From assembly GCA_045616685.1 (NCBI GenBank), contig JAZLHF010000002.1:1-24000 (forward strand): 24,000 nt of DNA, read 5' to 3'. Below, in pieces: positions 294 to 15,718 of this stretch; within the stretch, counting starts at the first letter, position 1, and each line of letters opens with the position of its first letter. Both the position numbers and the translations under genes were made by a program. The notes under the pieces were generated by a model. It saw only the letters and a program-made list of their open reading frames with translations. It was not told the origin of the DNA and did no database searches. The DNA comes from Anaerovoracaceae bacterium. GTDB lineage: Bacteria > Bacillota > Clostridia > Peptostreptococcales > Anaerovoracaceae.

Positions 294-520
294 AAAATAA
301 TCTCCTTGAATATATTTTAACTCAAGGAGATTACAATTTCCATTATTTTTACACTAAATTTACACTATTTTTCACTATGTAGCATAATTTTGTCCCACAC
401 GAAACTATGGAATACTTCTCGTTATTACAATTTGCTTTAAAAGCATATTTACTACAGTTGAAAGATTTGTACCTAAATCTTCAAGTATTTCTAGTGACAT
501 TGTCAATACGAACAAAGAGC

Positions 521-964
521 CTAAAAAGGCTCTTCAATTTCGTAGACTTCAATCAACCATTCATAGCAGGATTCATGAGATATTTCTGAGGTTTTAATAG
601 ATTTCAGCCTAAAGAAGCTTTTTTGAGGGGTAAAAGCTAATTTAAGCTTAATTAGATAGTTACTCTCGCCCTCATATGCTGACAAATTTACGATTCTAAC
701 TGTGCCATTATCCTTGCTAAAACAAGGCATATTTGAGACGGCGTAGTTGATCATCGTTTGAACACAACTTCTACATATATCAGCGTCAAATACTATTTTT
801 TCAGTTTCTTCATCATAGCAATTAAGCGCTGCATATGCTGTGCATTCTTCCGTTAAAGCCTGAAGATTTTGCTCAAGAAGATAATAATTTGTAAAATCAG
901 ACTGATAGGTTAATCCTAAAACAGATAAAATAATTATCCCAAACGATACTATTAAAGGCTTCAT
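521..964 (-). CDS. Tad-locus accessory protein (TadE/TadG-like pseudopilin candidate), N-terminal hydrophobic anchor
   Basis: 147-aa ORF with N-terminal hydrophobic segment MKPLIVSFGIIILSVLGLTY. Its ATG overlaps the stop of the upstream gene (ATGA at 961-964), indicating operon coupling. The family assignment comes from context only. Confidence 0.4.
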   Translation of the reverse strand: MKPLIVSFGIIILSVLGLTYQSDFTNYYLLEQNLQALTEECTAYAALNCYDEETEKIVFDADICRSCVQTMINYAVSNMPCFSKDNGTVRIVNLSAYEGESNYLIKLKLAFTPQKSFFRLKSIKTSEISHESCYEWLIEVYEIEEPF

Positions 965-1332
965 AAGAATTCACTCGCAACCGAGCTGTTAATCACATAT
1001 GAGTATTCATTATTTTCCTTCAAGCCAAGCATTGCCCTTTTTACTATAATTGTCACTGAGTAATGAATAATGCTTCCCCTTGAAAAATCACCAAAATGTT
1101 TAGCATCACTAGTACAAGTAATATTATTGTTAGCAATGTGTAGTTTATTATTTATTTCTCTCTTAAGACCATCACAATCAAAATAGCCCTCCTGTTTTGC
1201 CTTCTCTGCATACGAATAAACAATATCGTTTACGCCCATAAGTCTAAAGCTATTAATTTGGTCTAAACTAACTTGCATGGCCATAATTAATAGCAAAGGC
1301 AATACTGCACACATTACAATAAACTGTTCCAA
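961..1332 (-). CDS. TadE/DUF4320-like pilus accessory protein; native 5' end (ATG and coupling to upstream gene) displaced by island insertion
   Basis: 123-aa ORF with N-terminus (L)EQFIVMCAVLPLLLIMAMQ, a TadE-like hydrophobic N-terminus. In the integrated state only a TTG at 1332 with no Shine-Dalgarno is available. The matching original start (ATG AAG CAG TTT ATA GTA) lies 13.5 kb away at 14867, overlapping the stop of the small gene 14864-15016. Confidence 0.5.
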   Translation of the reverse strand: MEQFIVMCAVLPLLLIMAMQVSLDQINSFRLMGVNDIVYSYAEKAKQEGYFDCDGLKREINNKLHIANNNITCTSDAKHFGDFSRGSIIHYSVTIIVKRAMLGLKENNEYSYVINSSVASEFL

Positions 1333-1339
1333 ATGATAA
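1313..1339. repeat. Island junction (attL-type hybrid site): shared core ATTACAATAAACTG plus island-side arm
   Basis: 1313-1326 ATTACAATAAACTG matches 14848-14861 ATTACTATAAACTG (13/14, direct). 1318-1339 AATAAACTGTTCCAAATGATAA is the reverse complement of 14829-14850 TTATCATTTGAAACAGTCTATT (20/22). Confidence 0.65.
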
Positions 1340-1397
1340 CTTTACATTACTATGTAAATCGAAACTCTATTAAAGTACTTTTACAAAGTCCCAACGT

Positions 1398-4238
1398 TTA
1401 TAATTTGTACTTTCCAACTATTGAAGTAAGAAAAGTTTCAATTTCATATTTAGCATTATTTGGTATTTTCTTTTCTAATAGTTGCTTTGGAATAATTACT
1501 CCAGATTTTCCGTGTACATTCTTTCTAAATACAATTTTATGTTCCTCACGTCTCAACCTTTGAATAATATATCCTTGGCTTAACCATGCATCTGATATAC
1601 AGCACTCATCATAGTTGTATTTAATAGCTCTTTTGGGAATATCAGCATCCCATTTTTCTTTCCATTCCCCAGGAGCTGTATCGTACCAAAATGCATCAGT
1701 AAAATAAGCTGTCCAATCAAGATTATCACCAATTATTTCTTCTATTTTTTTAAAGGTTAAAGTTACAGGCGATTTATTACATGTTCTAAAGAATTCCCTT
1801 AGCAAGTAGTATGGATCATCTTTTGTATTTTCCTCACTTATATATGTTTCTAATAATCCTAAGGTATTAATTCCTTCACCGCCATACCATGCACTGCTAT
1901 CAACAGCAATATTTGAGCATCTTTTGTGTACATATGCTAAGTTTTCAGCATTTATACCCTTATCTGGCCTTATTTTTACAATAGCAAGTTCCTGATCAGG
2001 AAGCATCCTCTTTTCACATGCAAAGCAAATACCCATTTGTCTTCGCCAGATTGCTTTATACTTATCTCCGGACACTCTGTTTATTTCTCTCTTATACTCA
2101 AGCTCATCATAATAAGCTTTGTCTAAATAAGGATTTGCTTCTGAACTTGTTGGAATCTGTCTTATTGGAGCCATTTCAGTTAACGATATTACTTGATAAT
2201 CCCTATGGTCTGGATCTGAAAACGCATAACCATTACTTGTTTTTATCCAAAACTTCTTTCTGATTTTTTCTTGTTCTCGCCTTGGATACATTTTCTTTGT
2301 TTTTGTTAAAAGAAGAGCATTTACAGCAACGTCTATATGCCTAAATGCTTCATATGCATCACTAATTCTTTGATAGTAACCCCATCCATAAAGCTTTCTA
2401 TTAAGTCCTTGTATAAACGATTTAATTGAGCCATTGTTATTCAAAATATACTTTTCAAGATTGCTTTCGAATGTTTTAATGGCATCATCTGATGGTCTAC
2501 TTTTAATCTGTCCATTATTCTTTTCGAAATGGTACGAAAGAAAATCAAAACCATCTTTTAGGTTTACTATTTTGCTTTTTTCTTCAGAAAGCTTTAGGCC
2601 ACGAATTTCTAAGAAGTCTTTTAATATTTTAAGTATATTTTCCGCCCTTTCTTTTGAATCTGCAGAAATAACAATATCATCTGCGAATCTAACAACCTTA
2701 CCATCTGAATGAGCTTTCAATAATTTTTCATCAATATATTGTTCAAGCCCATCCAAAGTCATGTTTCCAATTACAGGCGAAATACTTGAACCTTGAGATA
2801 TTCCGGCATCAGTTTCTCTCATAACGCCATTTTCTAAAACTCCAGCAGTTAAAAATTCTTTAAGAACGTGCTTATCCATTAAAATATTCTTCATTATCCA
2901 GTCATGGTTTATTTCATCATAATAATGTCTCACGTCTCCGTAAATAGCCCAGTCTGGTTTATCATATCCATTGAACATTTCCTTAACACATTCATGTGCA
3001 TCAAATATTGATCGTCCTTCTCTAAATCCAAAGGAATGTTTATCAGCAGTGCTTTCAGCCAAAGGCTTTAATGCAAATGAATAAAGAGTTTCCATTGCTT
3101 TATCATATTGTGTTGCAACTTTTATTATTCTTACTTTTCCACCTTGCTCCCTTAATTTAAAATTATAAAATGGTCTATGATGATAATCTTCTGCAGTTAA
3201 AGATAATACCGCCTTCATCTTTTCCGCATCCGTATTCCATTTAACATTGTCTATTCCAGATCCAGAATTATTATTAATTACCTTTCTTACTGCTAGTAGT
3301 TTTGCTGGCATAGAATTTACAATAATTAATTGCCATTCCAGGCATTTATCCCAATGTTTTAAACTTGCTTCAGTAGCAAGTCTATGTTGCATATTACTAA
3401 GCTTTCTTTCCATGATTGCCCAGTTTGTACTTGTCCACATCTCTGCAGCATTCTCATCATTAAGTAAATTTTTTTCTTTTGGTTTCCAAAATTGAATTTC
3501 CATTTTTATCGGACAGTGATCACTGCCATATATTTTGTTAAGGTGTTCTACGTCCTTAACTTCTCCAATTAATTCTCTTGAAATTAAAAAATAATCAAGG
3601 CGCCAGCCTCGATTCTCCCACCTTTTATTTAGTCTATTTGACCACCATGTATATGTTCTTGCCTGAGTCGGATAGTACGCTCTATACACATCAATTAAAT
3701 TACATGTTTGAATAAGATCTTTCATCCCAGTTCTTGTATCTTGATCAAATTTTGCTTCATTAATTTGGTTACGCTGGTTTTCTGGGTATATATCTATGCT
3801 CTCAAGTGCAACATTAAAATCCCCACATATAATTACTGGTTTATCCAAAGCTAAAATGAAATTTTTTAAGCATTTATCCCATCTAATTCTTACATCTAGT
3901 CGTTCCAGACCACTTTCAGCATTTGGCACATACACATTTATGACGTAATACTCCTGAAATTCAAGGCATATCATTCTGCCTTCAGCATTTAAATCAGAAT
4001 CTCCTATATCTGTTGTCACGGCTAAAGCTTTTTCTTTAGATAATATTAATGTTCCTGAGTACCCTTTTTTACTTGTGCATAGATTCCAATATTCCTCATA
4101 TTCATCTAATCTTAGCTGTATCTTCGACCTAACTTCTTGGCAACAAAAAAAATCTGCATTTTGTTTTCTTACCACTTGCTCAAATCCTTTTAATTTGCAT
4201 GCTTTAATTCCATTAACATTCCAGGATACTATTTTCAT
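1398..4238 (-). CDS. Fusion protein: N-terminal exonuclease III/APE-type (EEP) nuclease + group-II-intron-like reverse transcriptase + maturase/thumb-like region + CxxC..HxxC knuckle + C-terminal unknown module
   Basis: 946-aa ORF with SD-like GGAAGTGAGG upstream of the ATG at 4238. EEP motifs occur in order: SWNVNG, FFCCQEV, NVYVPN, ICGDFNV, GWRLDYFLIS, GSDHCPI (aa 1-247). RT blocks: GSGIDNV, RPFYNFKLREQGGKVRIIKV, HSFGFREGRS, YGDVRHYYDEINHD, GISQGSSISPVIGN, VRFADDIVIS, RGLKLSEEKSKI, GFDFLSYHF. Thumb-like region: RKLYGWGYYQ. Knuckle: CFACEKR...YVHKRC. Confidence 0.85.
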   Translation of the reverse strand: MKIVSWNVNGIKACKLKGFEQVVRKQNADFFCCQEVRSKIQLRLDEYEEYWNLCTSKKGYSGTLILSKEKALAVTTDIGDSDLNAEGRMICLEFQEYYVINVYVPNAESGLERLDVRIRWDKCLKNFILALDKPVIICGDFNVALESIDIYPENQRNQINEAKFDQDTRTGMKDLIQTCNLIDVYRAYYPTQARTYTWWSNRLNKRWENRGWRLDYFLISRELIGEVKDVEHLNKIYGSDHCPIKMEIQFWKPKEKNLLNDENAAEMWTSTNWAIMERKLSNMQHRLATEASLKHWDKCLEWQLIIVNSMPAKLLAVRKVINNNSGSGIDNVKWNTDAEKMKAVLSLTAEDYHHRPFYNFKLREQGGKVRIIKVATQYDKAMETLYSFALKPLAESTADKHSFGFREGRSIFDAHECVKEMFNGYDKPDWAIYGDVRHYYDEINHDWIMKNILMDKHVLKEFLTAGVLENGVMRETDAGISQGSSISPVIGNMTLDGLEQYIDEKLLKAHSDGKVVRFADDIVISADSKERAENILKILKDFLEIRGLKLSEEKSKIVNLKDGFDFLSYHFEKNNGQIKSRPSDDAIKTFESNLEKYILNNNGSIKSFIQGLNRKLYGWGYYQRISDAYEAFRHIDVAVNALLLTKTKKMYPRREQEKIRKKFWIKTSNGYAFSDPDHRDYQVISLTEMAPIRQIPTSSEANPYLDKAYYDELEYKREINRVSGDKYKAIWRRQMGICFACEKRMLPDQELAIVKIRPDKGINAENLAYVHKRCSNIAVDSSAWYGGEGINTLGLLETYISEENTKDDPYYLLREFFRTCNKSPVTLTFKKIEEIIGDNLDWTAYFTDAFWYDTAPGEWKEKWDADIPKRAIKYNYDECCISDAWLSQGYIIQRLRREEHKIVFRKNVHGKSGVIIPKQLLEKKIPNNAKYEIETFLTSIVGKYKL

Positions 4239-4255
4239 GATGCCTCACTTCCATT

Positions 4256-4305
4256 AAAAAACGGCTTTAAAGAGCTGCAACTTTATCTGTAGCTCTACAA
4301 AGCCG
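4256..4305 (-). terminator. Strong hairpin + T6 tract (intrinsic-terminator-like) between recombinase gene and RT start
   Basis: Minus strand reads CGGCTTTGTAGAGCTACAGATAAAGTTGCAGCTCTTTAAAGCCG followed by TTTTTT. The outer 7-bp stem is CGGCTTT/AAAGCCG and the inner 6-bp stem is AGAGCT/AGCTCT. The tract ends 17 nt before the RT ATG. Confidence 0.55.
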
Positions 4306-4308
4306 ATC

Positions 4309-4338
4309 ATTTTATTAATAAATAAGGATGAATATCAA
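4309..4338 (-). promoter_or_regulatory. Candidate sigma-A-type promoter for the RT gene
   Basis: Minus strand has TTGATA (rc of 4333-4338), an 18-nt spacer, then TAAAAT (rc of 4309-4314). The predicted start falls inside the 5' arm of the hairpin at 4262-4305. Confidence 0.35.
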
Positions 4339-4480
4339 CTTTTACAGCTGATAGTAAATTCTTATCTTATTCTTAGTTGCCTCTGCAAATAATTGATTTA
4401 TTAATATTTCTTTCATAATAAAGCCAGATTCCTTCAAACTATAATACAAACATTAATGATAAATCTTATACTATTTGCTA

Positions 4481-6298
4481 CTATTGCTTTTGTGCCTTTG
4501 CAATTTTCTTATCAGCCTTAACCAAACCTTTAAGTTTTGTAATATATGTTGTAAACGTGTTTTCTATATCAGCATTGTAACCCGTTATACTTGAGAAACC
4601 ATCAGGATTAATCTTTTCAAATAGTAGCGCTTCTAATTTTGCGAAGATATTAAGCTTAAAATCAACAAGCTTCTTATCATCAAATACAACATATTCCAGC
4701 ATATTTAATATTTCTTCTGGGCTATAGGAATCCCTTGGCAACAAATCTTCAACAGCTTTATTGTACTCATCAAGTAAATCTTGCACATAATCATACAGAT
4801 TACTGTTATTTTTTAGTATTGCATCCTTTTGCTTTGTAAGAACTTCTTTTTCTTGGCCAAGTGCTTCTACTTTATCAACCATATCTCTGGAATTTGTTAA
4901 TAACAAAGTTTCAGCAGCATTATCCAGCATTATGTTTACTTGAGTTAATCTTTCATTTATTGGTCTTACTGCTTCCAGGGCATCTTCTTCAATGTTCATT
5001 TCAATTGCAGCAACAATGAATACAATCAAGCGTTCATATATTTCTTGCTTTGCATGCTCAATATCAGCATTAATAACCTTGCCATCCTCAAACATTTTCA
5101 GTTCATCATCAATATATTTTTCAGTAATGTTTTTAGAATGACACTTTTTTATTCCGTAAGTGTGCTTGGTAGAACAAAGATAATAACGTTCCCCTTGCTT
5201 GTTTTTTTGCGAATGGAAAAATGCCCCACATTTTGCACATCTAATTTTTTCTGCATATTTTGTAACGCCACAGTAAGCAATACCTTTTTTATTATTAACA
5301 TACTTTGTGTGGGCTTCCCTAACTTGTTGACACTTATCAAAAATTACAGGATCAACTATTGCAGGGATTCTATCACTTGGTTCACAAATATAATGCTCAC
5401 GTGTGCGCATGTAATTTGGTTTATTTTCAAATACATATCCCCTTGTATGCTTCTGCGGATTATTAAATCCCTTATACTTTTCATTGGTAATCTTCTTTGT
5501 TATATCTGAAGATACCCACTCTGTGCGTTTGGTACTATTTGGCAAATTGCTTGGACGTTTTCTATAGCCTTCTTCATTTAAAGTATTGGCAATTCTTCTA
5601 CATCCAAAGCCTTGCGAATATAATTCAAACATCCTTCTAATTGCAGCAGCTTCTTCTTCAACAATTTCTAAACTGTTTGTTTCTTTTACATATCTATACC
5701 CATAAAGCTGACCCGAAGCATATATTTTGCCCTTTTTTGCACCTTCTTCTCTACCAAATCTAACCTTTTGGCTACGGTCACGGCTTTCATTTTCATCAAA
5801 TGTTAAGAATATCTGGATAAATGGCAAGTCATCTGACAGTCTTGTAGATTTATTAATATTTAAAAAATATACAAATACATCTTTTTCCCTAAGCCTATTA
5901 ATAATGCTCATTACTTCCATGTTCCTTGCAAATCTGGAAGTATTCTTAACAATGATATAATCAAATTTAGGCTTACGTTTGGAAACAGTATAAGCTTCAC
6001 CTGTTTTTCTACCAGAATCTTTATCTTTAATTTCAATTACATCAAGCCCGGCATCTTTAATCATTTTTGTAAATTCCGGCCTATTCAACTTGGTTCCAGT
6101 AATACCACGCTCAGGATAGATCTTTATTACATCAGATGGATCTTCTTTAAGTTCACGCTCAAAATAAGATCTCTGATTTTCCAATGAATTAAGCTGCGAT
6201 TCTTCTGTTGTAGAAACTCTACAATAAGCAACTGCTTTTGGCCGCCTGCCAAACTGTTCTTCAAATCTTCTAAATTCTTCTTGTACGCCTGAATGCAT
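4481..6298 (-). CDS. Large serine recombinase (integrase of the island)
   Basis: 605 aa. N-terminal resolvase catalytic domain (AVAYCRVSTTEESQLNSLENQ, with the catalytic Ser in RVST). Recombinase domain (YGYRYVKETNSLEIVEEEAAAIRRMFELY). Zn-ribbon (CAKCGAFFHSQ...YYLCSTKHTYGIKKC). Long C-terminal coiled-coil-like tail. Confidence 0.9.
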   Translation of the reverse strand: MHSGVQEEFRRFEEQFGRRPKAVAYCRVSTTEESQLNSLENQRSYFERELKEDPSDVIKIYPERGITGTKLNRPEFTKMIKDAGLDVIEIKDKDSGRKTGEAYTVSKRKPKFDYIIVKNTSRFARNMEVMSIINRLREKDVFVYFLNINKSTRLSDDLPFIQIFLTFDENESRDRSQKVRFGREEGAKKGKIYASGQLYGYRYVKETNSLEIVEEEAAAIRRMFELYSQGFGCRRIANTLNEEGYRKRPSNLPNSTKRTEWVSSDITKKITNEKYKGFNNPQKHTRGYVFENKPNYMRTREHYICEPSDRIPAIVDPVIFDKCQQVREAHTKYVNNKKGIAYCGVTKYAEKIRCAKCGAFFHSQKNKQGERYYLCSTKHTYGIKKCHSKNITEKYIDDELKMFEDGKVINADIEHAKQEIYERLIVFIVAAIEMNIEEDALEAVRPINERLTQVNIMLDNAAETLLLTNSRDMVDKVEALGQEKEVLTKQKDAILKNNSNLYDYVQDLLDEYNKAVEDLLPRDSYSPEEILNMLEYVVFDDKKLVDFKLNIFAKLEALLFEKINPDGFSSITGYNADIENTFTTYITKLKGLVKADKKIAKAQKQ

Positions 6299-6376
6299 AT
6301 CAATTACTCCACTAACATAAGAAGTTGTTTAATTTACGTTTTTATTATACCAGAAAAATTAATTTGTGTAACCCGC

Positions 6377-6404
6377 TTACGAACTGTATATATCACGGCA
6401 TAAT
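6377..6404 (+). promoter_or_regulatory. Candidate promoter for the Zn-ribbon/resolvase operon
   Basis: TTACGA (6377-6382), 16-nt spacer, CATAAT (6399-6404). It shares AACTG after the -35 and CACGGCATAAT with the candidate promoter at 12147-12175 on the other strand. Confidence 0.35.
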
Positions 6405-6511
6405 GAAAAAGGTCTCAAAACCTACAAGTTATGGGCAAATTTTAATGCCAACGTAAAACCAAGTATTTTGGCAGTTCCAAAACATAGTTTCAAAAATAGA
6501 GGTTAAAAACA

Positions 6512-6694
6512 ATGAAATGTTGTATCTGTGGATGTGAGATTACACATCCGTTAATTAAAAATTATCTTGGTAATAACCCTTGCCCTGTTACCACAGATCC
6601 TAATAAACGCTGCTGCGACAAGTGCAATGCTGAAGTAGTTATTCCGGCAAGAATTTTGCTATATGAAAAGCAAAGAACTGGAGGCAAAAAATGA
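6512..6694 (+). CDS. Small Cys-rich (Zn-ribbon-like) protein, translationally coupled to resolvase
   Basis: 60 aa with CxxC (CICGC) and CCDKC pairs. AGAGG lies upstream of the ATG. Its stop overlaps the resolvase ATG (ATGA at 6691-6694). Confidence 0.5.
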
Positions 6695-7278
6695 TCTATG
6701 GATATGCCAGAGTCTCAACCAAAGGTCAAGCCAAAGATGGGAACTCTTTAATAGCCCAAGAGAATGCGCTTAAGAGAAATGGTGCAACAACTGTAATGTA
6801 TGAGAGTTTTACCGGAACCAAGTTGCACCGACCGGTTCTTGATGAACTTCTTAATAAGCTGCAGTCTGGGGACACTCTTATAGTTACTAAATTGGACCGT
6901 ATCGCACGAAATGCCAGAGATGGAATTGATATTATTAATGAAGTACTAAACAAGGGTTGTAGTATCCGAATTCTTAATATGGGGCTATTTGATAATTCCC
7001 CGTCTGGTAAGCTTATGAGAACTGTCATGCTTGCTTTTGCTGAATTTGAACGTGACATGATTGTGCAGCGCACTCAGGAAGGTAAAGAAATTGCAAGGCA
7101 AAATCCAAGCTTTAGAGAAGGCAGGCCCCGGAAGTTTAGAAATGAGCAGCTTGTTCACGCCGTAGAACTTTTTAATTCCGGGAAAACATACAAAGAAGTT
7201 GAAGCACTTACCGGAGTTTCCCGTAGCACCTTGTACAGATCTCTCTTAAATCAAGAAATCAAGGACGCTAAATTGTAG
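6691..7278 (+). CDS. Small serine recombinase (resolvase/invertase family)
   Basis: 195 aa. [13 protein letters not shown] catalytic motif, [20 protein letters not shown] and a C-terminal HTH ([10 protein letters not shown]). Confidence 0.9.
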
Positions 7279-7369
7279 TGGAAGAGGCAAATTATAGGCG
7301 ATTCTTGCAAGCAACCAATACTCTCATAGCCTTTTCCTTTGTATTACAGGGGCTTGTAATTAATCATAA

Positions 7370-7405
7370 GACGTCTGTCCAAAGCTGGGTAGACGTCATT
7401 TTTTT
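7370..7405 (+). terminator. Rho-independent terminator after resolvase
   Basis: GACGTCT (7370-7376), 14-nt loop, AGACGTC (7391-7397), followed by ATTTTTTT. Confidence 0.5.
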
Positions 7406-7418
7406 AGGAGAAACCACA

Positions 7419-7559
7419 ATGAAGGAAATTATACCATTCAGTCAGGAAGAACAAGAAGCCATTAAAGCAATTATGCTTGAATATCTTACCAACTGCCAAT
7501 TAGTAATCCTGTGCAGTACTGAACCCCACGGGTTTTATACACTCAAAAGAAAACATTGA
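7419..7559 (+). CDS. Small hypothetical protein (46 aa)
   Basis: ATG at 7419 is preceded by AGGAG (7406-7410). This is the internal start of the 7278-7559 track ORF, whose upstream part crosses the terminator hairpin. Confidence 0.3.
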   Translation: MKEIIPFSQEEQEAIKAIMLEYLTNCQLVILCSTEPHGFYTLKRKH

Positions 7560-7787
7560 ATGGATTTTATCCCAAGATTTGAAGAATTGCTTAAAATCTA
7601 CAACATTACAGAAGATAGAATCATTGAGTTCGTTGAAGCTGATTGCTGCACTCCATTTATCTGAAATCTTATTAATAATAATAGAATTCCATATTACAAT
7701 TCTTTAGATGAAGTAGATATTAATCTTTTATATTAAGCAATGACCTTGGCCAATGTGGTAAAATAATATAAATAATTAGGTGTTAAT

Positions 7788-9185
7788 ATGACTTCTGGAT
7801 ATAAAGAAAAAACGTTATTCAAATACTTGCTGTACTTATATATGGTGCTTTGCCAAAGGGGATTTAAGCCACCTTTTATTAATGTTGGGTTGGGCGATAC
7901 TAACTTGGAAAAGCAACTGTCAGTAAGTAGAAAAACACTAATTCAAGTTCTAACTCAATTAGGGATAATAGTTCGCAGTACAAAATCCTATGCCTATCAT
8001 AAGATTAATATTTCATATAAATATTTTATTAACATAGATATGTATTTAGAATGTTTTAATGAAATTGTTGCAACAAAAGATATTATTGGATTTTTAAAAG
8101 ATTTTCCTGCTGATGTTCCAAATACTAATATTCAATCATTAGTATTACTAAGCAAGAAGATATGCAAAACAAACTGGACAATACTAAATAAAGATCAGAA
8201 GATATTGCTGACAACAAAGGTAAACAACTTATTAAATAATACTATTATTTGCTTTTTCCTTGGAGATTCAAAATATGCAAATATATCAGACGTAACAATG
8301 CTTACTGCAGCTTTTGATGACAATCAGCCACAGTTTAAAATTAAAAAAACAACACTGGATTGTATTAAAAATAATACCAATAACAGTCTTAAGCCTTTTG
8401 TTGTTCATACAAAATATAACTGGACAGAAGATCAAGAAGCTTATTATATAAACTACTACAAAAAAATGTTGTCAGAAACTACAATAATGCAGAATCTGAC
8501 GCAGTCAGTCCAAGAAGTAAGAAGCCACGGAATTGCTGTAAATTGCAATATTCATGTCAGCCTTTCTAAGCTTAAAGCCGGGTATAAATTTAAAGTATCA
8601 TGTCGCCAGTATAACCCATACTGTTCTCTGGAAAAAGAAATTCGGACACGAAGCTTTACACAAGAAGGAATTACTGGAAATTATGATTTACACAGCGCAA
8701 TTTTTGCTGTAACAAGATTAATGAATACTGGGGCATTTGAACCTGATTGGGATATTAAATCTGAAGTGTTAAAGCTAAATCCTGAAACTATTGATGGTAT
8801 ATGTTTAACTAAAGATGACTTAAAGCCCTTACTTATGAGGATGTTTTTTAAAAAAACTGATGCTGATGCTTATAACCATTATAGATATGCCTTATTACAG
8901 GATAGTGAGTCAGGTTTACCTAATATAAGCAAAGAAACTTTTTATAATATACTTGATAAATGTGAGAAACTGACTGGTGGGGTAAAAGAATATTATCATA
9001 ATATTTTTGAATTAGAGTCAATTATAGAACTTAGAAGTGTAAAACGTATTGCTAAGCAAAATAACACAGTAAGAAATATCTATGACTGTTTCTACTTTAA
9101 ACCAGAAGAAATAACTCAAGAAGAAGTTAAAAAAATAGTAAAGGAAGAAGCAGCAAAACTATATGCTATAATGAAAATGGCATAA
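7788..9185 (+). CDS. Hypothetical protein, possible wHTH DNA-binding/replication-initiator-like protein
   Basis: 465-aa ORF. The N-terminal segment (LEKQLSVSRKTLIQVLTQLGIIV) looks like an HTH. It is followed by an AT-rich palindromic region. I recognised no catalytic motif, so the Rep-like role is inferred from context only. Confidence 0.6.
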   Translation: MTSGYKEKTLFKYLLYLYMVLCQRGFKPPFINVGLGDTNLEKQLSVSRKTLIQVLTQLGIIVRSTKSYAYHKINISYKYFINIDMYLECFNEIVATKDIIGFLKDFPADVPNTNIQSLVLLSKKICKTNWTILNKDQKILLTTKVNNLLNNTIICFFLGDSKYANISDVTMLTAAFDDNQPQFKIKKTTLDCIKNNTNNSLKPFVVHTKYNWTEDQEAYYINYYKKMLSETTIMQNLTQSVQEVRSHGIAVNCNIHVSLSKLKAGYKFKVSCRQYNPYCSLEKEIRTRSFTQEGITGNYDLHSAIFAVTRLMNTGAFEPDWDIKSEVLKLNPETIDGICLTKDDLKPLLMRMFFKKTDADAYNHYRYALLQDSESGLPNISKETFYNILDKCEKLTGGVKEYYHNIFELESIIELRSVKRIAKQNNTVRNIYDCFYFKPEEITQEEVKKIVKEEAAKLYAIMKMA

Positions 9186-9272
9186 ATTGGTAGAAAAATT
9201 CAGAAATGCCCACATTTGTGGCAAATATATATATATTTATTATATTTAAAAAAAAATATATAAATAATAATC

Positions 9273-9318
9273 AAAAAAATTTTGCAAAATTTTTTTACCC
9301 CCTTTTTTGCAAAATTTT
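9273..9318. repeat. Two copies of the palindrome TTTTGCAAAA (first embedded in a perfect 24-nt palindrome), 25 bp centre to centre
   Basis: 9273-9296 AAAAAAATTTTGCAAAATTTTTTT is a perfect palindrome. A second TTTTGCAAAATTTT lies at 9305-9318. An (AT)6 run lies at 9225-9236 just upstream. Confidence 0.6.
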
Positions 9319-9321
9319 ATT

Positions 9322-9362
9322 AAAAAAACACAGAGAATTTTTATAAAACTCTGTGCTTTTTA
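9322..9362. terminator. Bidirectional terminator between convergent genes
   Basis: A7 tract, CACAGAG (9329-9335), loop, CTCTGTG (9349-9355), then CTTTTT. It sits between the + gene ending at 9185 and the - gene ending at 9372. Confidence 0.55.
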
Positions 9363-9371
9363 TTTATATAA

Positions 9372-10469
9372 TTATTCTTCTTCACTATTAATATTCCAAA
9401 GATCAATTTGCCTTAATCCATCATCCACAATTTCTTTTTTTATCTTTGGCTTTTTAATTTTAAACCCATTCTTTTCATATTGCAGATATGAATAAACTTC
9501 ATCCATTTCTTCTTTACTAACGCAGCCCCTTTTCCACTCATCTAATCTGTATTGAACTTCTTTATCATTGATATAATCATTGTACTTTTCAATTTCACAT
9601 ATTTTTTCACATAATTTCACTGGCACAAAAAAGTATTCTTCCCTGCCAATTTTTACTGCATTCAATTTATACCATACAGATCTGGCATACCTATATACCC
9701 CTTTATTCTTCCCCATAATTACCACAATGTCATTATCACCAGTTCCTAATTGATACTTTTTTCTAACCTTATAAAAAGGTCCTTCCAGTCCTGCATTATC
9801 AAAAATAACCGGGGTATAAACTATGTCAACATAATCTGGAACACAATTTGATCTTTCATACCTGTATTTAGGCATCTCTATAAGATTTATATTATCCCTA
9901 TTTACATCTGTTATTGAGTAGCTATCATTTGTATCTATAAACTCTTTCTGTCCCTCTGATAAAAAAGCCCAACCATAATTAAAAGATTGAATTTGATTAT
10001 TAATCTGTTTAATTATTTTTTCTACAATGCTTTCAACAATTTCATCATCAGCTTCAAGTCCAGTAATCTCTTTATATTTCTCTACTGTAAGATCAGTTAA
10101 CTTGCAAACTCTCATTTTAGCAGGAATTGGAATAGATAACATAACCGTCACATATTCCTGATAGCTATATTTTGTGCTAAATGCATTGTCAAATCTCATT
10201 CCCCCTGATTCCATTTCTCCACCAATATATCTGTAAACTCCATTATAAATTCCTGCACAAGTGACAACAATAAAATTGTATTTAACAGAGCTCTGATATT
10301 TCAAATCTACAACGGCATGCAGGGCTACTTCCCCATTTTTAATTTTAATAACTGGTGTATATACAAAACTCCAATTAGTTGGTAAGTTTCTTACTCTTTT
10401 TGGCTGATATCCAGATACAAGTAATTTTACAGATTCAAAACCAGTATTTTTATATATTTTTGAAAGCAT
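9372..10469 (-). CDS. Hypothetical protein with internal tandem duplication (third gene of AAA-protease operon)
   Basis: ATG at 10469 with AAGGAG 7 nt upstream (the track starts at the TTG at 10475). Two ~45-aa blocks are repeated: VYTPVI...KYQ...IVV...GVYRY at aa 38-83 and 219-263. No family was recognised. Confidence 0.7.
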   Translation of the reverse strand: MLSKIYKNTGFESVKLLVSGYQPKRVRNLPTNWSFVYTPVIKIKNGEVALHAVVDLKYQSSVKYNFIVVTCAGIYNGVYRYIGGEMESGGMRFDNAFSTKYSYQEYVTVMLSIPIPAKMRVCKLTDLTVEKYKEITGLEADDEIVESIVEKIIKQINNQIQSFNYGWAFLSEGQKEFIDTNDSYSITDVNRDNINLIEMPKYRYERSNCVPDYVDIVYTPVIFDNAGLEGPFYKVRKKYQLGTGDNDIVVIMGKNKGVYRYARSVWYKLNAVKIGREEYFFVPVKLCEKICEIEKYNDYINDKEVQYRLDEWKRGCVSKEEMDEVYSYLQYEKNGFKIKKPKIKKEIVDDGLRQIDLWNINSEEE

Positions 10470-10524
10470 AAGCAAACTCCTTTTTTAATAATATAATTAT
10501 ATAAAAAAAGCTGCCAAGCTTCAA

Positions 10525-11835
10525 TTAATTTGGTCCCCTTAAAATGCAAGCTAAATCGGGCTGCAAAACAACCTTCTTTTTAAACAGCTCATCAGCAAGC
10601 CGATCCAATTTATCTCTGTTAGAAATTAACATTAACTTTGCTTGTTGGTAGAAACGTTCCATCTCACTTGCAACCATTGTTTCTTTTCTGTTAAGAAGTG
10701 CCTCTGATGATGCAGAACAAATTCCTTCCCAGTAGTTAAATCCCATGGCTGCATAATCATCAACAAATCTGGTTACAATAGCATAAGCCCTATGCAGATC
10801 ATTATTACAGCCTACATCTGGAACACCAAATACAATTTCAATTGCAGCTTTTCCGGCAAGTAATGTCACAACCCTGTTTTCCATTGATTTTTTATTATAA
10901 AAATAATATGGCTCTTGAGTATGGTTTGTCATGCCAGCTGGGACTTCAGGGTGTGGATTACAAACAGTAACTATATTAATTAACCCCGGTGTTAACAACT
11001 CACTAACAAGTGCATGTGCTGCCTCATGATAGCAAACATGTATTAAGTACGGATTATCATTTTCATTAAAAACTTCTGGATCACTATAAAGATACCTTAA
11101 ACAAGCTTTAATCATATCATCCATATCAATTGCTTCTTTGTCTTCAAAACCAGCAAATATACCGGCTTGATTAACCACTTCCTGAAGCTGAGCACATGAA
11201 CTGCCTTGCAAGATTCTTGCAATAAGCGGTGCATCAACATTTGAAACATATGGCAGCTTTGATAAATAATGTCCAACTATTGCTTCAACATCATTGCTTC
11301 TTGGTTTAGATATATAAAGCTGCTGTCCAAATCTACCAGCCCTAAGCAATGAGTCCGGCAAACATTCTAAAGAATTTGCTGTAGCAAGCACAAAGATATC
11401 TCTATCACCAATTTCATCTATGCATGTTTGAACAGTAATATATTCTTCAGCATTTGGATGCCTTCTGTCTGTATTAGCATATCTATCAAGATCATCAAGC
11501 AGAATTATACACTTGCCATTTTCTTTATAATAAGCCTTAGCTTCTTCAAATACTTGCTTTATATAATTTACAAACTCACCATCAGGCTTATCTTTTCTGC
11601 AAACAAAAACTTTCCTACCAAGTTCTTTTGCAATACTCTGTGCAATAACTGTTTTACCAACCCCTGGATCACCATGAAGCAAAAATGCCTTTGGTGCCTT
11701 AACCCCTAAAGCCTGATACTTTTCAGGATTATTCAACATATCACAGATATAATCAATTTCATTCTTTTCTTCTTCATACCCAATAATTTCATCAAAGTAT
11801 TTCAGCATAAAAGCCCCCATCATTCTTAAATCCAA
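10525..11835 (-). CDS. Soluble FtsH-like protein: AAA+ ATPase fused to M41-type zinc metalloprotease, no N-terminal transmembrane segments
   Basis: Walker A HGDPGVGKTV, Walker B IILLDDLD, second region of homology ATANSLECLPDSLLRAGRFGQQLYISKP, and HEXXH zinc site HEAAHAL. The FtsH-like lead-in YFDEIIGYEEEKNEI is present. The start is uncertain: TTG at 11835, or ATG at 11823, 11820 or 11808. Confidence 0.8.
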   Translation of the reverse strand: MDLRMMGAFMLKYFDEIIGYEEEKNEIDYICDMLNNPEKYQALGVKAPKAFLLHGDPGVGKTVIAQSIAKELGRKVFVCRKDKPDGEFVNYIKQVFEEAKAYYKENGKCIILLDDLDRYANTDRRHPNAEEYITVQTCIDEIGDRDIFVLATANSLECLPDSLLRAGRFGQQLYISKPRSNDVEAIVGHYLSKLPYVSNVDAPLIARILQGSSCAQLQEVVNQAGIFAGFEDKEAIDMDDMIKACLRYLYSDPEVFNENDNPYLIHVCYHEAAHALVSELLTPGLINIVTVCNPHPEVPAGMTNHTQEPYYFYNKKSMENRVVTLLAGKAAIEIVFGVPDVGCNNDLHRAYAIVTRFVDDYAAMGFNYWEGICSASSEALLNRKETMVASEMERFYQQAKLMLISNRDKLDRLADELFKKKVVLQPDLACILRGPN

Positions 11836-11837
11836 AA

Positions 11838-12116
11838 CTACTTGCCACTTTTGATATAGTCACGTTCTTTTATAAAAGCCTTCCCATTTTTGAACTCGTA
11901 GTAAGTTCTTAAAGCATTTTTTAAATCATTGTCTGCTCTGACATTTCCGGTATCAATCTGCTGCAGTGCACTAAACATCTGACTATCATCAGCAACAATT
12001 TCATCAGGATCTTTAACAAGCAATTTTTCAACTTTTACTAATCGGCACAATCTGCTGTTGGATGAGTTACTTGTGTATTTCTCATTCAAGTAATTCAAAA
12101 ATTCTGTTTTATCCAT
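11838..12116 (-). CDS. Small hypothetical protein (92 aa), first gene of AAA-protease operon
   Basis: ATG at 12116 with AAGGAG 6 nt upstream. Its stop lies 2 nt from the longest start of the AAA-protease ORF. No family was recognised. Confidence 0.55.
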   Translation of the reverse strand: MDKTEFLNYLNEKYTSNSSNSRLCRLVKVEKLLVKDPDEIVADDSQMFSALQQIDTGNVRADNDLKNALRTYYEFKNGKAFIKERDYIKSGK

Positions 12117-12146
12117 TTGGGGCTCCTTTCTTCTTAGCGTGCACAT

Positions 12147-12175
12147 ATTATGCCGTGTTTCAGGCAGTTTGCGAA
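12147..12175 (-). promoter_or_regulatory. Candidate promoter of the 92aa/AAA-protease/365aa operon
   Basis: Minus strand has TTCGCA (rc of 12170-12175), a 17-nt spacer, then CATAAT (rc of 12147-12152). It lies just downstream of the terminator hairpin at 12197-12222. Confidence 0.4.
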
Positions 12176-12196
12176 TGCCCTTTTTTCAAGCACGCA

Positions 12197-12222
12197 AAAA
12201 GGACTCATCTGGGAGTCCTTTT
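12197..12222 (-). terminator. Hairpin terminator downstream of the methyltransferase gene
   Basis: AAAAGGACTC / 6-nt loop / GAGTCCTTTT forms a perfect 10-bp inverted repeat. T-runs flank it on both strands. Confidence 0.5.
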
Positions 12223-12415
12223 ACTGTCCGTTAAGATATTTCTATTAAAATATCAGTTTTGTGCGACCACGGAGACAAAACAAGCCTTAATTCTTGTTAT
12301 AAACTAATTATTATAAATAGATGCTTAAAATTACAAATTCTTAAACTCATCAACACAAGCTTTGCAAAGATTTTCTCTAGAAAAACCTATTTCTTAGTTC
12401 TTTTTACAACAAAAT

Positions 12416-13402
12416 CTATTTATTTAAATTAATTGCTTTTATTATTTCTTGTGCAATTCTATTAATTACAGATACACACACACTGTTACCGGCTTGCTTA
12501 TAGAGTTTTGCATCACTTAAATCGTCCGGTAGTTTATATTTCTTTGGAAAACCCTGTGTATTAAAACATTCTTTTGGTGTCATTTTTCTAATACCATAAT
12601 CAGTTTTTATCAGGCAAACATTATGCCCACCTTCCCCCTGATTTGCTGTTAAAGTTGGCACCACACCGGATTTGTTTTTTCTAACATATTGGCGCCTCCA
12701 TTGGTAAACAGCACGATCATCATCCATAGCTTCTACCAATTTGTCATAAATATCACCCTTATATTTTCCTTGTGTATAATAATACTTGTCATCAATTTTA
12801 CTATGAAAATCTATAATATCCTCTAAAGATTTTGTGAGTTTTACAGGCTTAGGGAAATTAAAGCTCTTATTTGTCTCTTCATCAAGAAATCCAACTATAT
12901 AAATACGTTCTCTGTTTTGCGGAATATTACCATATTCCATAGCATTTAAAACCATATACTTTGGATTGTGATAGCCACGTTTTTCAAGTTCATCAATGAT
13001 TACTCTGAATGTATTCCCATTATCATGTCCCACCAGATTTTTCACATTTTCTAAAAATACTATCTGTGGCTTTTTATTCCCCTTTTCATCAATAATGCGC
13101 ATTAACTCAAAGAATAAAGTCCCCCGACCTTTTTCATCATCAAATCCTTTTCTATATCCTGCAACACTAAAAGCCTGACATGGAAACCCAGCAAGCATCA
13201 CATCAAAATCTGGAATCTCACTTGCTTTGACTTTATGTATATCTCTCACATCAACTTTTATATTAAAATTTTGTTCATATGTTTTTGCCGGAAATGCATC
13301 AAATTCATTAGCATAGACTGTTTGGAAAGCTTTGGTCATTTCAAACCCAAGATCAATTCCTCCAACTCCTGCAAAGAAAGATGCACATTTTAAATTATCC
13401 AT
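12416..13402 (-). CDS. DNA (cytosine-5)-methyltransferase
   Basis: Motif I FFAGVGGIDLGF, motif IV GFPCQAFSVAG, motif VI ENVKNL, motif VIII QNRERIY, TRD-proximal TLTANQGEGGHN and motif X YKQAGNSV. ATG at 13402 with GGAGG (rc of 13406-13410). The longer track start at 13477 runs through the promoter. Confidence 0.92.
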   Translation of the reverse strand: MDNLKCASFFAGVGGIDLGFEMTKAFQTVYANEFDAFPAKTYEQNFNIKVDVRDIHKVKASEIPDFDVMLAGFPCQAFSVAGYRKGFDDEKGRGTLFFELMRIIDEKGNKKPQIVFLENVKNLVGHDNGNTFRVIIDELEKRGYHNPKYMVLNAMEYGNIPQNRERIYIVGFLDEETNKSFNFPKPVKLTKSLEDIIDFHSKIDDKYYYTQGKYKGDIYDKLVEAMDDDRAVYQWRRQYVRKNKSGVVPTLTANQGEGGHNVCLIKTDYGIRKMTPKECFNTQGFPKKYKLPDDLSDAKLYKQAGNSVCVSVINRIAQEIIKAINLNK

Positions 13403-13435
13403 GATACCTCCTATATGTATATCACCATTTAGTAT

Positions 13436-13465
13436 ATTATATCGTAAAATCGCGGCGCGCTGCAA
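13436..13465 (-). promoter_or_regulatory. Candidate methyltransferase promoter with GC-rich spacer
   Basis: Minus strand has TTGCAG (rc of 13460-13465), the 18-nt spacer CGCGCCGCGATTTTACGA, then TATAAT (rc of 13436-13441). Confidence 0.45.
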
Positions 13466-13475
13466 TTCATTTCCC

Positions 13476-13506
13476 AAAATTAAACACGCGCTTTTTTATG
13501 CGCGTG
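13476..13506 (-). terminator. Hairpin terminator after the nuclease gene
   Basis: Minus strand has CACGCGC, loop ATAAAAAA, GCGCGTG, followed by TTTAATTTT. It starts 8 nt after the stop at 13514. Confidence 0.5.
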
Positions 13507-13513
13507 CTTAGTT

Positions 13514-14524
13514 CTACTGTTCTTCCAGAGCTTCACCTACTTCAGAAATAATGTTCCAGTTTTCTTTATATTCTGACAACTCAGTTAGTGGAACACTTTC
13601 TCTTCCGGCATCAACCCATTCATCAATCTTAGTTGTGGGTATAAGATAACAGATACCAAAACGCTTATCCACGGCTGCATAAATATCACAATCTTTAGAG
13701 GAAATAAACTTTCCACGATTTCTTGCTGCCGTTGGATCAATTCCAGCACCCCCACGGTCTCTATCTTTTAGTGCAATTGATGGCTGTGTCGTACTTGAAA
13801 TATCAGATAATATGCCTTTAATCTGAACTCTTAATAACCGGCCATTATAATCAATAAATGCATCATATCTACAAGACCTTACATCTACATTTGCACACAT
13901 AAATCCGGCAAGTATTGCTCTTGCAAGAAAAATGAACTGCGCAGCATCTCCCTCATTGGCAACCATGACACCAGTATTAATACTTGTCATATTCCTGACA
14001 AAGCCATTTGTTAAACCCAAAAACAATGAATCATCCAATAAGTGTCCAAGGCTTTTCTTAATATACGTTAATTCAGTATCATTTATGTCATCATCAGAAT
14101 ATTCATGGAAAGATAAGACATCATTAAAAACTAAATCTTTAAATCCAGTATTTGTAAAATATGTTTTCTTAACAGAATTAAGAATCATATCTTCATAATA
14201 ATTTCTAACATCCTTCCAGGCAAAAACTTTACTATTTGCATAGCTTTTAATTTCTCTTTCAATAGCAGCTTTTGAATTTCCTTCAATATCCCGCATATCA
14301 GCAGATAATTCATTAGGATTATTCTGTGCATACTCTTTAAATTTTTTGCTCAGATACGGTGTAATGTCTGTCTGCGTATATTGCGGATCGGCTTCCCTAA
14401 ATTCATTAGGGAATGCATTTATTAAATTTTTCGCTGTAAATCTTGTTGGATGATCATTAAATTCAACAATATTATCTGCAACAAATTGTTCTAAATCATC
14501 TTTATGTGTAATTACTATAGCCAT
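13514..14524 (-). CDS. PD-(D/E)XK nuclease-domain protein, probable type II restriction endonuclease partner of the C5-methyltransferase
   Basis: The C-terminal half carries a PD-(D/E)XK-like core, AAQFIFLARAILAGF...YDAFIDYNGRLLRVQIKG, then DIYAAVDKRFGICYLIP. It lies immediately upstream of the MTase on the same strand. ATG at 14524 (the track uses the TTG at 14542). Confidence 0.55.
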   Translation of the reverse strand: MAIVITHKDDLEQFVADNIVEFNDHPTRFTAKNLINAFPNEFREADPQYTQTDITPYLSKKFKEYAQNNPNELSADMRDIEGNSKAAIEREIKSYANSKVFAWKDVRNYYEDMILNSVKKTYFTNTGFKDLVFNDVLSFHEYSDDDINDTELTYIKKSLGHLLDDSLFLGLTNGFVRNMTSINTGVMVANEGDAAQFIFLARAILAGFMCANVDVRSCRYDAFIDYNGRLLRVQIKGILSDISSTTQPSIALKDRDRGGAGIDPTAARNRGKFISSKDCDIYAAVDKRFGICYLIPTTKIDEWVDAGRESVPLTELSEYKENWNIISEVGEALEEQ

Positions 14525-14582
14525 CTTTTCCACCACTGACAAACAAAAAATTGATTTGCCAATAGTATAACAGACGTGTAAC

Positions 14583-14783
14583 TTAATTTCCAGATGCTCT
14601 ATCTTTCATATTATTTACTTTAATAATTAACTGCCCATGTTTATATTGCACATCAATTGGAGTCCCTGGTATAAATCCAATGTTTTCAAGCCATCTTCCC
14701 TTCAATCTAATCATTGCAACAGGCTTGCAATGATAATCACTTGAAGTATATACCCGCATCTTATGTATACTATTATTTTCCAT
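14583..14783 (-). CDS. symE: SymE-family (AbrB-fold) type I toxin-like protein
   Basis: KPVAMIRLKGRWLENIGFIPGTPIDVQYKHGQLII matches the SymE signature (E. coli SymE: [33 protein letters not shown]). ATG at 14783 with AGAGG upstream. The track start at 14813 is the alternative. Confidence 0.75.
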   Translation of the reverse strand: MENNSIHKMRVYTSSDYHCKPVAMIRLKGRWLENIGFIPGTPIDVQYKHGQLIIKVNNMKDRASGN

Positions 14784-14828
14784 GTTCAACCTCTGTAATA
14801 ATTGAAATTTCAACTATTACTACTATTT

Positions 14829-14861
14829 TTATCATTTGAAACAGTCTATTACTATAAACTG
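14829..14861. repeat. Island junction (attR-type hybrid site): island-side arm plus shared core ATTACTATAAACTG
   Basis: See the 1313-1339 feature. The site is locally palindromic: CAGTCTAT-TACT-ATAAACTG. Confidence 0.65.
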
Positions 14862-14863
14862 CT

Positions 14864-15016
14864 TCATAGCTTGTTATACCTCATATCCCTCAATTCTACT
14901 TCTTTTTGCCATAAGTCCTGCATTGAATGTAGTACGCTGTCATCTTTAAAGATCAGGGTGTTAACAATACAAATTCCAAGTACTACGGATGCAACCAGAA
15001 CTATCAGCTGTTTCAT
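14864..15016 (-). CDS. Small hydrophobic protein (50 aa), paralog of 15020-15190; possible non-canonical Flp-like pilin
   Basis: Not in the ORF track (under 60 aa). ATG at 15016 with GGGGA upstream. Translation: MKQLIVLVASVVLGICIVNTLIFKDDSVLHSMQDLWQKEVELRDMRYNKL. Its TGA overlaps an ATG at 14865-14867 (ATGA) that opens the truncated MKQFIVIDCFK peptide. Confidence 0.45.
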   Translation of the reverse strand: MKQLIVLVASVVLGICIVNTLIFKDDSVLHSMQDLWQKEVELRDMRYNKL

Positions 15017-15019
15017 TTT

Positions 15020-15190
15020 TTAATCCCCAAAACCTTCAGCAATAGCTGCATCAAACGCTGTATCAACAGCAGTAACAGCCTCACCAACATTGTCGGCTAA
15101 AGTTGTTGCATTATCTCCTAAACCAATAACTACGCCACTAATTGAAATTCCAAGTATTACTGTAGCTACTAAAACCATCAATTGTTTCAT
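15020..15190 (-). CDS. Small hydrophobic protein (56 aa), possible non-canonical Flp-like pilin
   Basis: ATG at 15190 with AAAGGGGA upstream. Translation: MKQLMVLVATVILGISISGVVIGLGDNATTLADNVGEAVTAVDTAFDAAIAEGFGD. The longer track ORF (to 15265) overlaps the upstream gene. Confidence 0.5.
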   Translation of the reverse strand: MKQLMVLVATVILGISISGVVIGLGDNATTLADNVGEAVTAVDTAFDAAIAEGFGD

Positions 15191-15203
15191 TGAATTTCCC
15201 CTT

Positions 15204-15716
15204 TCAAAACATTTGCTCAAATAACTTCTGTTGCTCAATAAAATACGCAACATATACAAAATCAAACATGACTAGCATTGCGTTCATTACGACTGGGAAG
15301 TAAATAATGTCCGAGATAATTTCGTTGTTTTGTTGTTTTCGTTCTAAATTATCTTCTCGCAAACTGTCAACGTATATATCAATGGTTCCAAGCAAGTCCT
15401 CAGAAGCTATATCTTCCCACCCTGCGAGGACTCTTCCTAGATCCTTTGAGAACCCATTACCAAAATAACCATAAAGAACATCTGCTGCCTTTTCTTTATC
15501 ATTGATATGTAAATATTGTCCCATACTTTGGAATGCTGGCTTAAGCTTATCTGAAATCTCAGCAAGTTCTTGCATCAATATTTCAGAGCTCACACCAGAA
15601 ACCTTGCCTAATATTACATTATTTCTGATAAATGCCAAAGCCTGCAGCAATTCCTGTTCTAAAGCAGCCTTTTGTCTTTCATTTTTTATACTTTTAAAAA
15701 ACTCTTTTATACGCAT
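15204..15716 (-). CDS. TadC-like (single T2SS-F-type domain) pilus assembly protein
   Basis: 170-aa ORF, helical, with a C-terminal TM segment (IIYFPVVMNAMLVMFDFVYVAYFI). It sits directly after the TadB-like gene. The assignment is largely positional. Confidence 0.4.
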   Translation of the reverse strand: MRIKEFFKSIKNERQKAALEQELLQALAFIRNNVILGKVSGVSSEILMQELAEISDKLKPAFQSMGQYLHINDKEKAADVLYGYFGNGFSKDLGRVLAGWEDIASEDLLGTIDIYVDSLREDNLERKQQNNEIISDIIYFPVVMNAMLVMFDFVYVAYFIEQQKLFEQMF

Positions 15717-15718
15717 TT

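Follow-up and report, generated by a model that had tools for sequence, protein, structure and literature searches.

ATP-dependent M41 proteases are known almost solely as membrane-anchored housekeeping enzymes; crystallised cytoplasmic fragments of FtsH are soluble hexamers. In full-length FtsH/HflB (MEROPS M41; TIGR01241; including Yme1 and AFG3L2), a classical-clade AAA module and the M41 zinc peptidase behind it are preceded by two N-terminal transmembrane helices that flank a periplasmic domain. Three further kinds of system come close. Iet pairs a classical AAA ATPase (IetA) with a separate S8 serine protease (IetS) in a defence context. In the predicted MoxR-vWA-FtsH ternary conflict systems of multicellular Actinobacteria, Deltaproteobacteria and Planctomycetes, a protein with two FtsH-type AAA domains, the first of them inactive, always occurs with MoxR and vWA (Kaur, Burroughs, Iyer, Aravind 2020, PMC7159879). 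Thirdly, FtsH also has mobile xenologs (bioRxiv 10.1101/2023.06.19.545564). Those of heat-resistance islands in Proteobacteria (tLST/LHR type) are full-length membrane FtsH, clustered with small heat-shock protein (sHSP) and ClpK(G)-type chaperones. Here we describe a minus-strand operon for an FtsH-type protease that has neither the transmembrane helices nor the periplasmic domain, found in a 24,000-nt stretch of DNA (the window; contig JAZLHF010000002.1, positions 1 to 24,000) from Anaerovoracaceae bacterium, assembly GCA_045616685.1. Judging from its relatives, it is one member of a large accessory family that moves horizontally among gut and rumen Bacillota, which would make the family a soluble branch of M41 with a remodelled motor, living in defence-type islands. 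As the best explanation of the whole locus we propose, tentatively and a little short of an even chance, a cargo protease operon of an integrated island that acts as a regulated-proteolysis conflict module.

The genes of the operon and the signals around it are as follows.

11838..12116, minus strand: 92-aa leader gene, with AAAGGAG 6 nt before its ATG
10525..11835, minus strand: predicted soluble FtsH-like AAA+/M41 zinc protease (Pfam AAA and Peptidase_M41)
9372..10469, minus strand: 365-aa ORFan with an internal duplication (self-match only in global searches)
12197..12222, minus strand: terminator-like hairpin upstream of the operon, folding energy (dG) -13.8 kcal/mol, z -4.0, followed by a U-run
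12147..12175, minus strand: promoter candidate TTCGCA-17-CATAAT, 9/12 consensus matches plus a conserved core
9322..9360, minus strand: intrinsic terminator closing the operon, dG -15.4 kcal/mol, z -6.3, then U7
6373..6404, plus strand: sister promoter with the same core (exact CACGGCATAAT and AACTG, equal spacing)

An initial annotation of this DNA had placed three minus-strand open reading frames (ORFs) here, and all are present at those positions. The middle one reads as 436 aa from TTG 11835 or as 427 aa from ATG 11808, where the protein begins MLKYFDE. Because this is where a homolog on contig L086 starts, as do most members of the family (MLKYFDE or MKEFD), ATG 11808 is likely the true start. 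The protein matches Pfam AAA (5e-19) and Peptidase_M41 (7e-16), has a single AAA domain that begins 4-13 residues in, and gives no Pfam match to FtsH_ext. Its best PDB matches are whole cytoplasmic FtsH fragments (2DHR/4EIW, 1e-37), aligned end to end. As the initial annotation had stated, N-terminal transmembrane helices are missing: the highest Kyte-Doolittle (KD) value over 19 residues is 1.45, which is below transmembrane level, compared to 2.44 in the genome's own FtsH. The latter is a normal 674-aa protein with two transmembrane segments, encoded in the same 1.23-Mb genome and 31% identical to the protease, in agreement with the earlier view of the protease as accessory and separate from the housekeeping enzyme. 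Scores of 185.9 bits on TIGR01241 (cut-off 600) and 121.5 bits on NF008004 (cut-off 1008) put it below the FtsH equivalog level.

To compare individual motifs, we used an alignment of 20 sequences, the window protease and 19 family members to which it is 45-52% identical, together with the genome's own FtsH. Residues G55-T62, D114/D115/D117, N154, R165/R168, H270/E271/H274 and D346 are invariant in the alignment. Relative to FtsH, the protease keeps Walker A, the sensor-1 Asn, both arginines of the second region of homology, HExxH and the Asp that is the third zinc ligand. The M41 site HEAAHAL that had been annotated is present, with H270, E271 and H274 as its HExxH residues; HEAAH is a variant of the HEAGH-type site. 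Among 194 family members, HExxH occurs in 194, LxRxGR in 192 and DDxD in 183. With HExxH present throughout, the proteolytic site is almost certainly active, as far as can be predicted from its residues. The AAA+ motifs had been called complete, which holds for Walker A, sensor-1 and the Arg fingers and fails for Walker B and the pore: the DExD of FtsH is DDxD here, with Asp replacing the catalytic Glu, and the FtsH pore-1 loop MFVGVGAS is reduced to [DE]F[VI] by a 4-residue deletion that keeps Phe-Val and loses the Gly (Phe88 is invariant in the alignment). The pore-2 region is 3 residues shorter than in the genome's own FtsH. The D2 domain of NSF has the same Asp-Asp Walker B, binds ATP and hydrolyses it very slowly. 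By analogy, a slow or switch-like motor is plausible for the protease; DDxD and the trimmed pore-1 loop together suggest slow or switch-like use of ATP and selective cleavage over bulk unfolding. Three cysteines, C79, C138 and C214 (in the motifs CRK, QSCID and SCAELE), are invariant or nearly so in the alignment and absent from the genome's own FtsH, and could form a redox or metal site.

The family comprises more than 1000 proteins of about 415-460 aa, with 45-53% identity among the best 120 matches. Almost all come from gut and rumen Clostridia metagenomes, where they are named just 'AAA family ATPase' or 'FtsH'. All family hallmarks are found in the window protease: no transmembrane segment, DDxD, CRKxKPDG[DE]F and the HExxH site. 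We located members in 116 stretches (GTDB contigs, one genome per species). Their spread is patchy, with a copy in only 1 of 40 relatives of this genome, at 35% identity. Among 50,697 phage records there is no close relative, just FtsH-level matches below 30% identity, and IMG/VR holds 3 members in 2.9 million contigs; a phage origin of the protease was rejected because the family is almost absent from both. One member is plasmid-borne, on Butyrivibrio pCY186 (36% identity). We found no description of a soluble FtsH-like family in PADLOC 2.0, in Pfam or NCBIfam naming, or in the literature searched, and the family is not among the PADLOC 2.0 systems.

The protease thus has the core of FtsH, but FtsH is a housekeeping enzyme, whereas the protease is accessory and island-borne. 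Nor does it belong to the other systems introduced above, as the initial annotation had held in recognising no named system. PADLOC IetA models do match its AAA module (79.6 bits). However, the housekeeping FtsH, run as a control, scores 126.9 bits on the same model, so the match is generic, and after this control membership in Iet was rejected. On NF042959 the protease reaches 65.8 bits, where the cut-off is 510. The protease is a fused M41 metalloprotease, unlike the two-protein IetA-IetS arrangement, and no IetS-like serine protease lies beside it, both neighbours being without a Pfam or PADLOC match. Compared to the tandem AAA domains of the ternary systems, the protease has one AAA domain plus M41, and no MoxR or vWA was found in the island ORFs scanned (ORF 961-1332, just outside the left attachment site attL, was not among them). 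In contrast to the heat-resistance xenologs, it has no membrane segment, and neither the island ORFs scanned nor the 25 commonest neighbour families of each set include chaperone genes. There is also a likeness to WYL (BrxR/CapW)-regulated defence cassettes (PMC9122601, PMC11662680): in 18 family loci, a WYL-WCX gene lies 1-3 genes upstream on the same strand. In the window operon, the head position is taken by the 92-aa leader.

To characterise the surroundings of the family, we called and clustered ORFs in 80 loci of its members. The genes directly beside the protease vary widely, with singletons making up 16 of 51 on the downstream side and 18 of 47 on the upstream side. A WYL-WCX regulator (Pfam WYL and WCX) lies within 6 kb in 35 of 74 loci, and upstream on the same strand in the 18 already mentioned. 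Other recurrent neighbours are a 264-aa protein without annotation, a 670-aa AAA protein, metallophosphatases, DEDDh exonucleases, dual-specificity phosphatases and BspA-type leucine-rich repeat proteins. In a random sample of 150 neighbours, PADLOC recognised WYL (13), GmrSD/HEC-06-like proteins (4), DRT2 (2, at 2e-134), Uzume UzuA (2) and dGTPase (2); Pfam added DUF2779, RtcB, HipA and Cas4-like proteins, and two ClpP genes. Genes tend to run in long co-directional arrays, with 455 neighbouring ORFs on the same strand as the protease and 187 on the opposite one. By these raw counts, which have no matched background, the neighbourhoods look like defence or conflict islands. The adjacency to known defence genes that the initial annotation had proposed to check is thereby seen as recurrence of WYL, GmrSD, DRT2, Uzume and dGTPase near the family, and not as a measured enrichment. 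A sub-cassette was seen in L044, L045, L047, L059, L067 and other loci, in which a 670-aa protein with a C-terminal AAA+AAA_lid_6 module is followed by the protease and then by a 264-aa protein without a family.

In the window, the three genes lie on the minus strand between two significant terminator-like hairpins. The upstream one, already annotated as a terminator, has the form AAAAGGACUC-CCAGAU-GAGUCCUUUU before its U-run and is identical in the related contig L087. It was missed by a consensus scan and picked out by its folding energy, and it most likely ends the transcription unit of the methyltransferase gene next to the operon. The downstream terminator sits in a convergent gap, the plus-strand operon beyond it stopping at 9185. 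An internal terminator between the protease and 365-aa genes was rejected, as the hairpin there is not significant (z -0.7). Two significant bounding hairpins and no significant internal one make the three genes one predicted transcription unit in this window, although not a conserved three-component system. A promoter-like site at 10/12 directly precedes the 365-aa gene, and an internal transcription start there is possible.

The promoter candidate fared unevenly. At 9/12, TTCGCA-17-CATAAT on its own is at chance level (23 such sites observed, 18.7 expected). What sets it apart is a core, AACTG-N7-CACGGCATAAT, whose element CACGGCATAAT is present at two places in the window where 0.17 are expected. 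In the more general form AACTG-N7-C(A/G)CGGCATAAT, the core is kept in L086, in L087 and in the second island promoter at 6373-6404, which drives an operon on the plus strand for a 60-aa Cys-rich protein, a resolvase, a 93-aa protein and a 465-aa protein. The shared core may be an island-specific promoter or operator. It is retained in L086 and L087 even where the flanking DNA diverges.

Both partners of the protease lack a recognisable family, as had been noted before: neither has one in Pfam (even at E = 5), NCBIfam, PHROGs or PADLOC. The 365-aa protein finds only itself in 5.8 billion clusters (word-indexed search) and in 1.84 billion representative proteins (full phmmer). It is a genuine coding frame nonetheless, as shuffling the region 300 times gave no ORF longer than 171 aa, and its codon positions follow the pattern of other genes (GC1>GC2>GC3). 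Residues 21-81 and 202-261 form an internal duplication (39% identity, E = 1e-5). A single-sequence AlphaFold2 (AF2) model of this protein reached a predicted local distance difference test (pLDDT) score of 33 and was set aside as unusable. For the 92-aa protein, only three relatives (65-88% identity) turned up, all on tiny contigs. On L086 (72% identity), the leader has an integrase-like gene upstream of it and is followed by a gene that starts MLKYFDEIIGYEEEKSEIDHICDMLNSPGKY and is 87% identical to the window protease. On L087 (88% identity), DNA homology extends from window position 12296 to 11824 and thus covers terminator, promoter and leader, after which comes an unrelated gene. The different downstream genes on L086 and L087 suggest that leader and promoter form a portable head and that the protease is exchangeable cargo behind it. 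The AF2 model of the leader protein (mean pLDDT 67) has an alpha-beta-alpha-alpha-beta-beta order over residues 28-82; it has no Foldseek match in PDB below E = 1, and a PDB profile search was also empty. From this model, the leader is possibly a small winged-helix-like protein.

Neither tblastn, nor hmmsearch/phmmer --max, nor hhalign detected a partner homolog next to the 80 family members, and hhalign against all recurrent neighbour clusters gave a best probability of 2.6%. The initial annotation had presented the three genes as a system and had named their failure to co-occur elsewhere as a finding that would speak against it. That is what was found for the composition as a whole: the 365-aa protein has no relative and the partners are absent elsewhere, with the single instance of a 92-aa gene beside a homologous protease on L086 as the part of the expected co-occurrence that stands. 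Going by these searches, the protease is the conserved unit and both partners are lineage-specific.

The operon is one part of an integrated element, whose limits and other genes are listed here.

1332..14847, no strand: integrated island, 13.5 kb (empty site in a congener, direct repeats)
1398-4238, minus strand: 946-aa fusion of an apurinic/apyrimidinic endonuclease (APE) and a reverse transcriptase (RT), with Exo_endo_phos, then RVT_N, RVT_1 and GIIM, then DUF7662
4481-6298: large serine recombinase
6691-7278, plus strand: resolvase, in the operon of the sister promoter
7788-9185, plus strand: 465-aa protein of the resolvase operon, no family
12416-13477, minus strand: C5 cytosine methyltransferase (PADLOC MTase_II, 7e-117)
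13514-14542, minus strand: 342-aa PD-(D/E)xK-like protein (weak match)
14583-14813, minus strand: SymE-family toxin, 76 aa (PF08845, 46 bits, cut-off 29)

In a congener of the same genus (genome G005, 98% complete), the sequence of window 813-1331 abuts that of 14848-18729 and the island is absent. Imperfect 19-bp direct repeats resembling attL and attR (16/19 identical) flank it at 1313-1331 and 14848-14866; the repeat motif ATTACnATAAACTGnTnCA has exactly 2 occurrences against 0 expected. The insertion point is the 5' end of a pilin-like gene in a Tad-type pilus cluster. The island is therefore site-specifically integrated and horizontally acquired. The methyltransferase and the 342-aa protein are probably a type II restriction-modification (R-M) pair with an unclassified nuclease. 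With this pair, the SymE toxin and the reverse transcriptase as predicted cargo, the earlier label of a defence-rich island seems a fair description.

How the operon might work can be pictured as follows. It would be cargo of the 13.5-kb site-specifically integrated island, and its core would be the membrane-less FtsH-type ATP-dependent zinc protease, most likely a soluble hexamer like the crystallised FtsH fragments. An island-specific promoter would drive the protease behind the leader gene. The 92-aa product is probably a small regulator or adaptor, since the leader heads different cargo elsewhere, and the 365-aa protein is possibly a lineage-specific specificity or target factor. Upon invasion or DNA damage, the protease would be expressed or activated and would degrade invader or host proteins, its altered motor favouring selective cleavage and not bulk unfolding. 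The wider family would have its home in defence-type islands, where a WYL repressor of the BrxR/CapW kind often precedes the protease and the neighbours are interchangeable. It is the neighbourhood only that points to a defence, addiction or regulatory role. Of the roles considered for the protease itself, a regulated-proteolysis defence module is the leading candidate on this sequence evidence, although we put its chance at somewhat less than half. If it holds, a metalloprotease effector class would be added to bacterial immunity and a compact ATP-gated soluble protease would become available for study. More doubtful is a wider proposal, in which gut Bacillota would share a new, widespread class of inducible modules against phages or plasmids, with the DDxD soluble proteases as common effector. 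Each protease would then be a self-sufficient core, fast-evolving neighbours such as the 365-aa ORFan with its duplicated domain would be swappable sensors or decoys, and the 92-aa leader would be a new type of regulator replacing the WYL repressor.

Several observations weigh against a defence module. The assignment is guilt by association, without a matched background rate. A WYL regulator is absent from the island ORFs scanned in the window, and the pCY186 member sits among replication genes. Neighbours of the family include Macro, ADP-ribosylglycohydrolase, Tpt1, phosphoesterases and DEDDh exonucleases, a set as compatible with counter-defence or RNA repair as with defence. The Asp-for-Glu change in Walker B might mean that the motor barely hydrolyses ATP. 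Lastly, the roles we suggest for the two partner proteins are drawn from position only, and the predicted folds of both are weak or unusable.

Next in rank, and unlikely in our judgement, is a protease that serves the element itself. By turning over a regulator of the element or an unstable protein of the antitoxin type, it would control excision, maintenance or post-segregational killing, and the 365-aa or 92-aa product could be the regulator or antitoxin-like partner. Host FtsH and Lon control lambda CII or antitoxins in a similar manner. The promoter core common to the protease operon and the resolvase/465-aa operon suggests regulation at the level of the element, both the window and two IMG/VR loci have a large serine recombinase close to the family member, the leader-protease pair of L086 adjoins an integrase-like gene, and the replication genes around the pCY186 member also fit. 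However, a regulator and the protease dedicated to it would be expected to co-vary, and the 80 loci yielded no partner of this kind. The neighbourhoods are very different from one another and hold no constant putative substrate gene, and many loci have no recombinase or replication gene within 6 kb.

We consider counter-defence less likely again. Here, a soluble protease of the element would degrade host immune proteins or signalling components and so aid establishment. The immediate neighbours of family members include Macro, ADP-ribosylglycohydrolase, Tpt1/KptA, calcineurin-like and dual-specificity phosphatases and DEDDh exonucleases, and on the plasmid there is an MBL-fold hydrolase. Activities of this kind are typical for genes of counter-defence, and the long co-directional arrays fit as well. 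Against this stand the near absence of the family from phages and the make-up of the top neighbour families, none of which has to do with conjugation or anti-restriction or is of the SSB/PsiB type. Moreover, the recurrent company is one of DRT2, GmrSD, Uzume, dGTPase and BrxR-like repressors, and the window protease sits beside the island's own R-M system.

A horizontally spread cytosolic quality-control protease, that is, a proteostasis or stress-tolerance paralog like the FtsH xenologs of heat-resistance islands, appears improbable. Its catalytic sites are intact, many full-length FtsH copies occur on plasmids, two ClpP genes are among the neighbours, and the known mobile xenologs give a precedent (bioRxiv 10.1101/2023.06.19.545564). 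Yet sHSP, ClpB/ClpG and DnaK-type chaperones are missing from the 25 commonest neighbour families of each set, the derived motor with its DDxD and truncated pore loop argues against a general unfoldase, and the family is patchy even inside one genus. Finally, a fixed three-component system, with the 92-aa and 365-aa proteins as obligate partners, is highly improbable, despite the tight packing of the three genes with one promoter and two terminators and the recurrence of the 92-aa and protease pair on L086, given that the 365-aa protein has no homolog in the two global searches, the 80 family loci contain no partner homolog, and the 92-aa gene and its promoter precede an unrelated gene on L087.

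A few further features of the island and the window were recorded. The 946-aa protein, in which an N-terminal APE-like endonuclease precedes a group-II-intron-type reverse transcriptase, has a domain order like that of long interspersed nuclear elements (LINE), here in a bacterium; in PADLOC it gives just generic RT, UG17 and Drt9-level matches. An Rfam scan of the window returned no families, so no group II intron RNA was recognised around the reverse transcriptase, and a tRNA scan of the window returned none, so there is no tRNA attachment site. The 465-aa protein was considered as a known plasmid or phage replication protein and this was rejected, as neither 72,556 plasmids nor 50,697 phage records contained a match. 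Its region, 7788-9185, has the lowest GC content of the window, about 28%. The SymE gene lies at the right end of the island. Window positions 1-377 have a second copy, 97% identical, where another contig of this genome ends (C17, 59265-59641), and represent a contig-end repeat.

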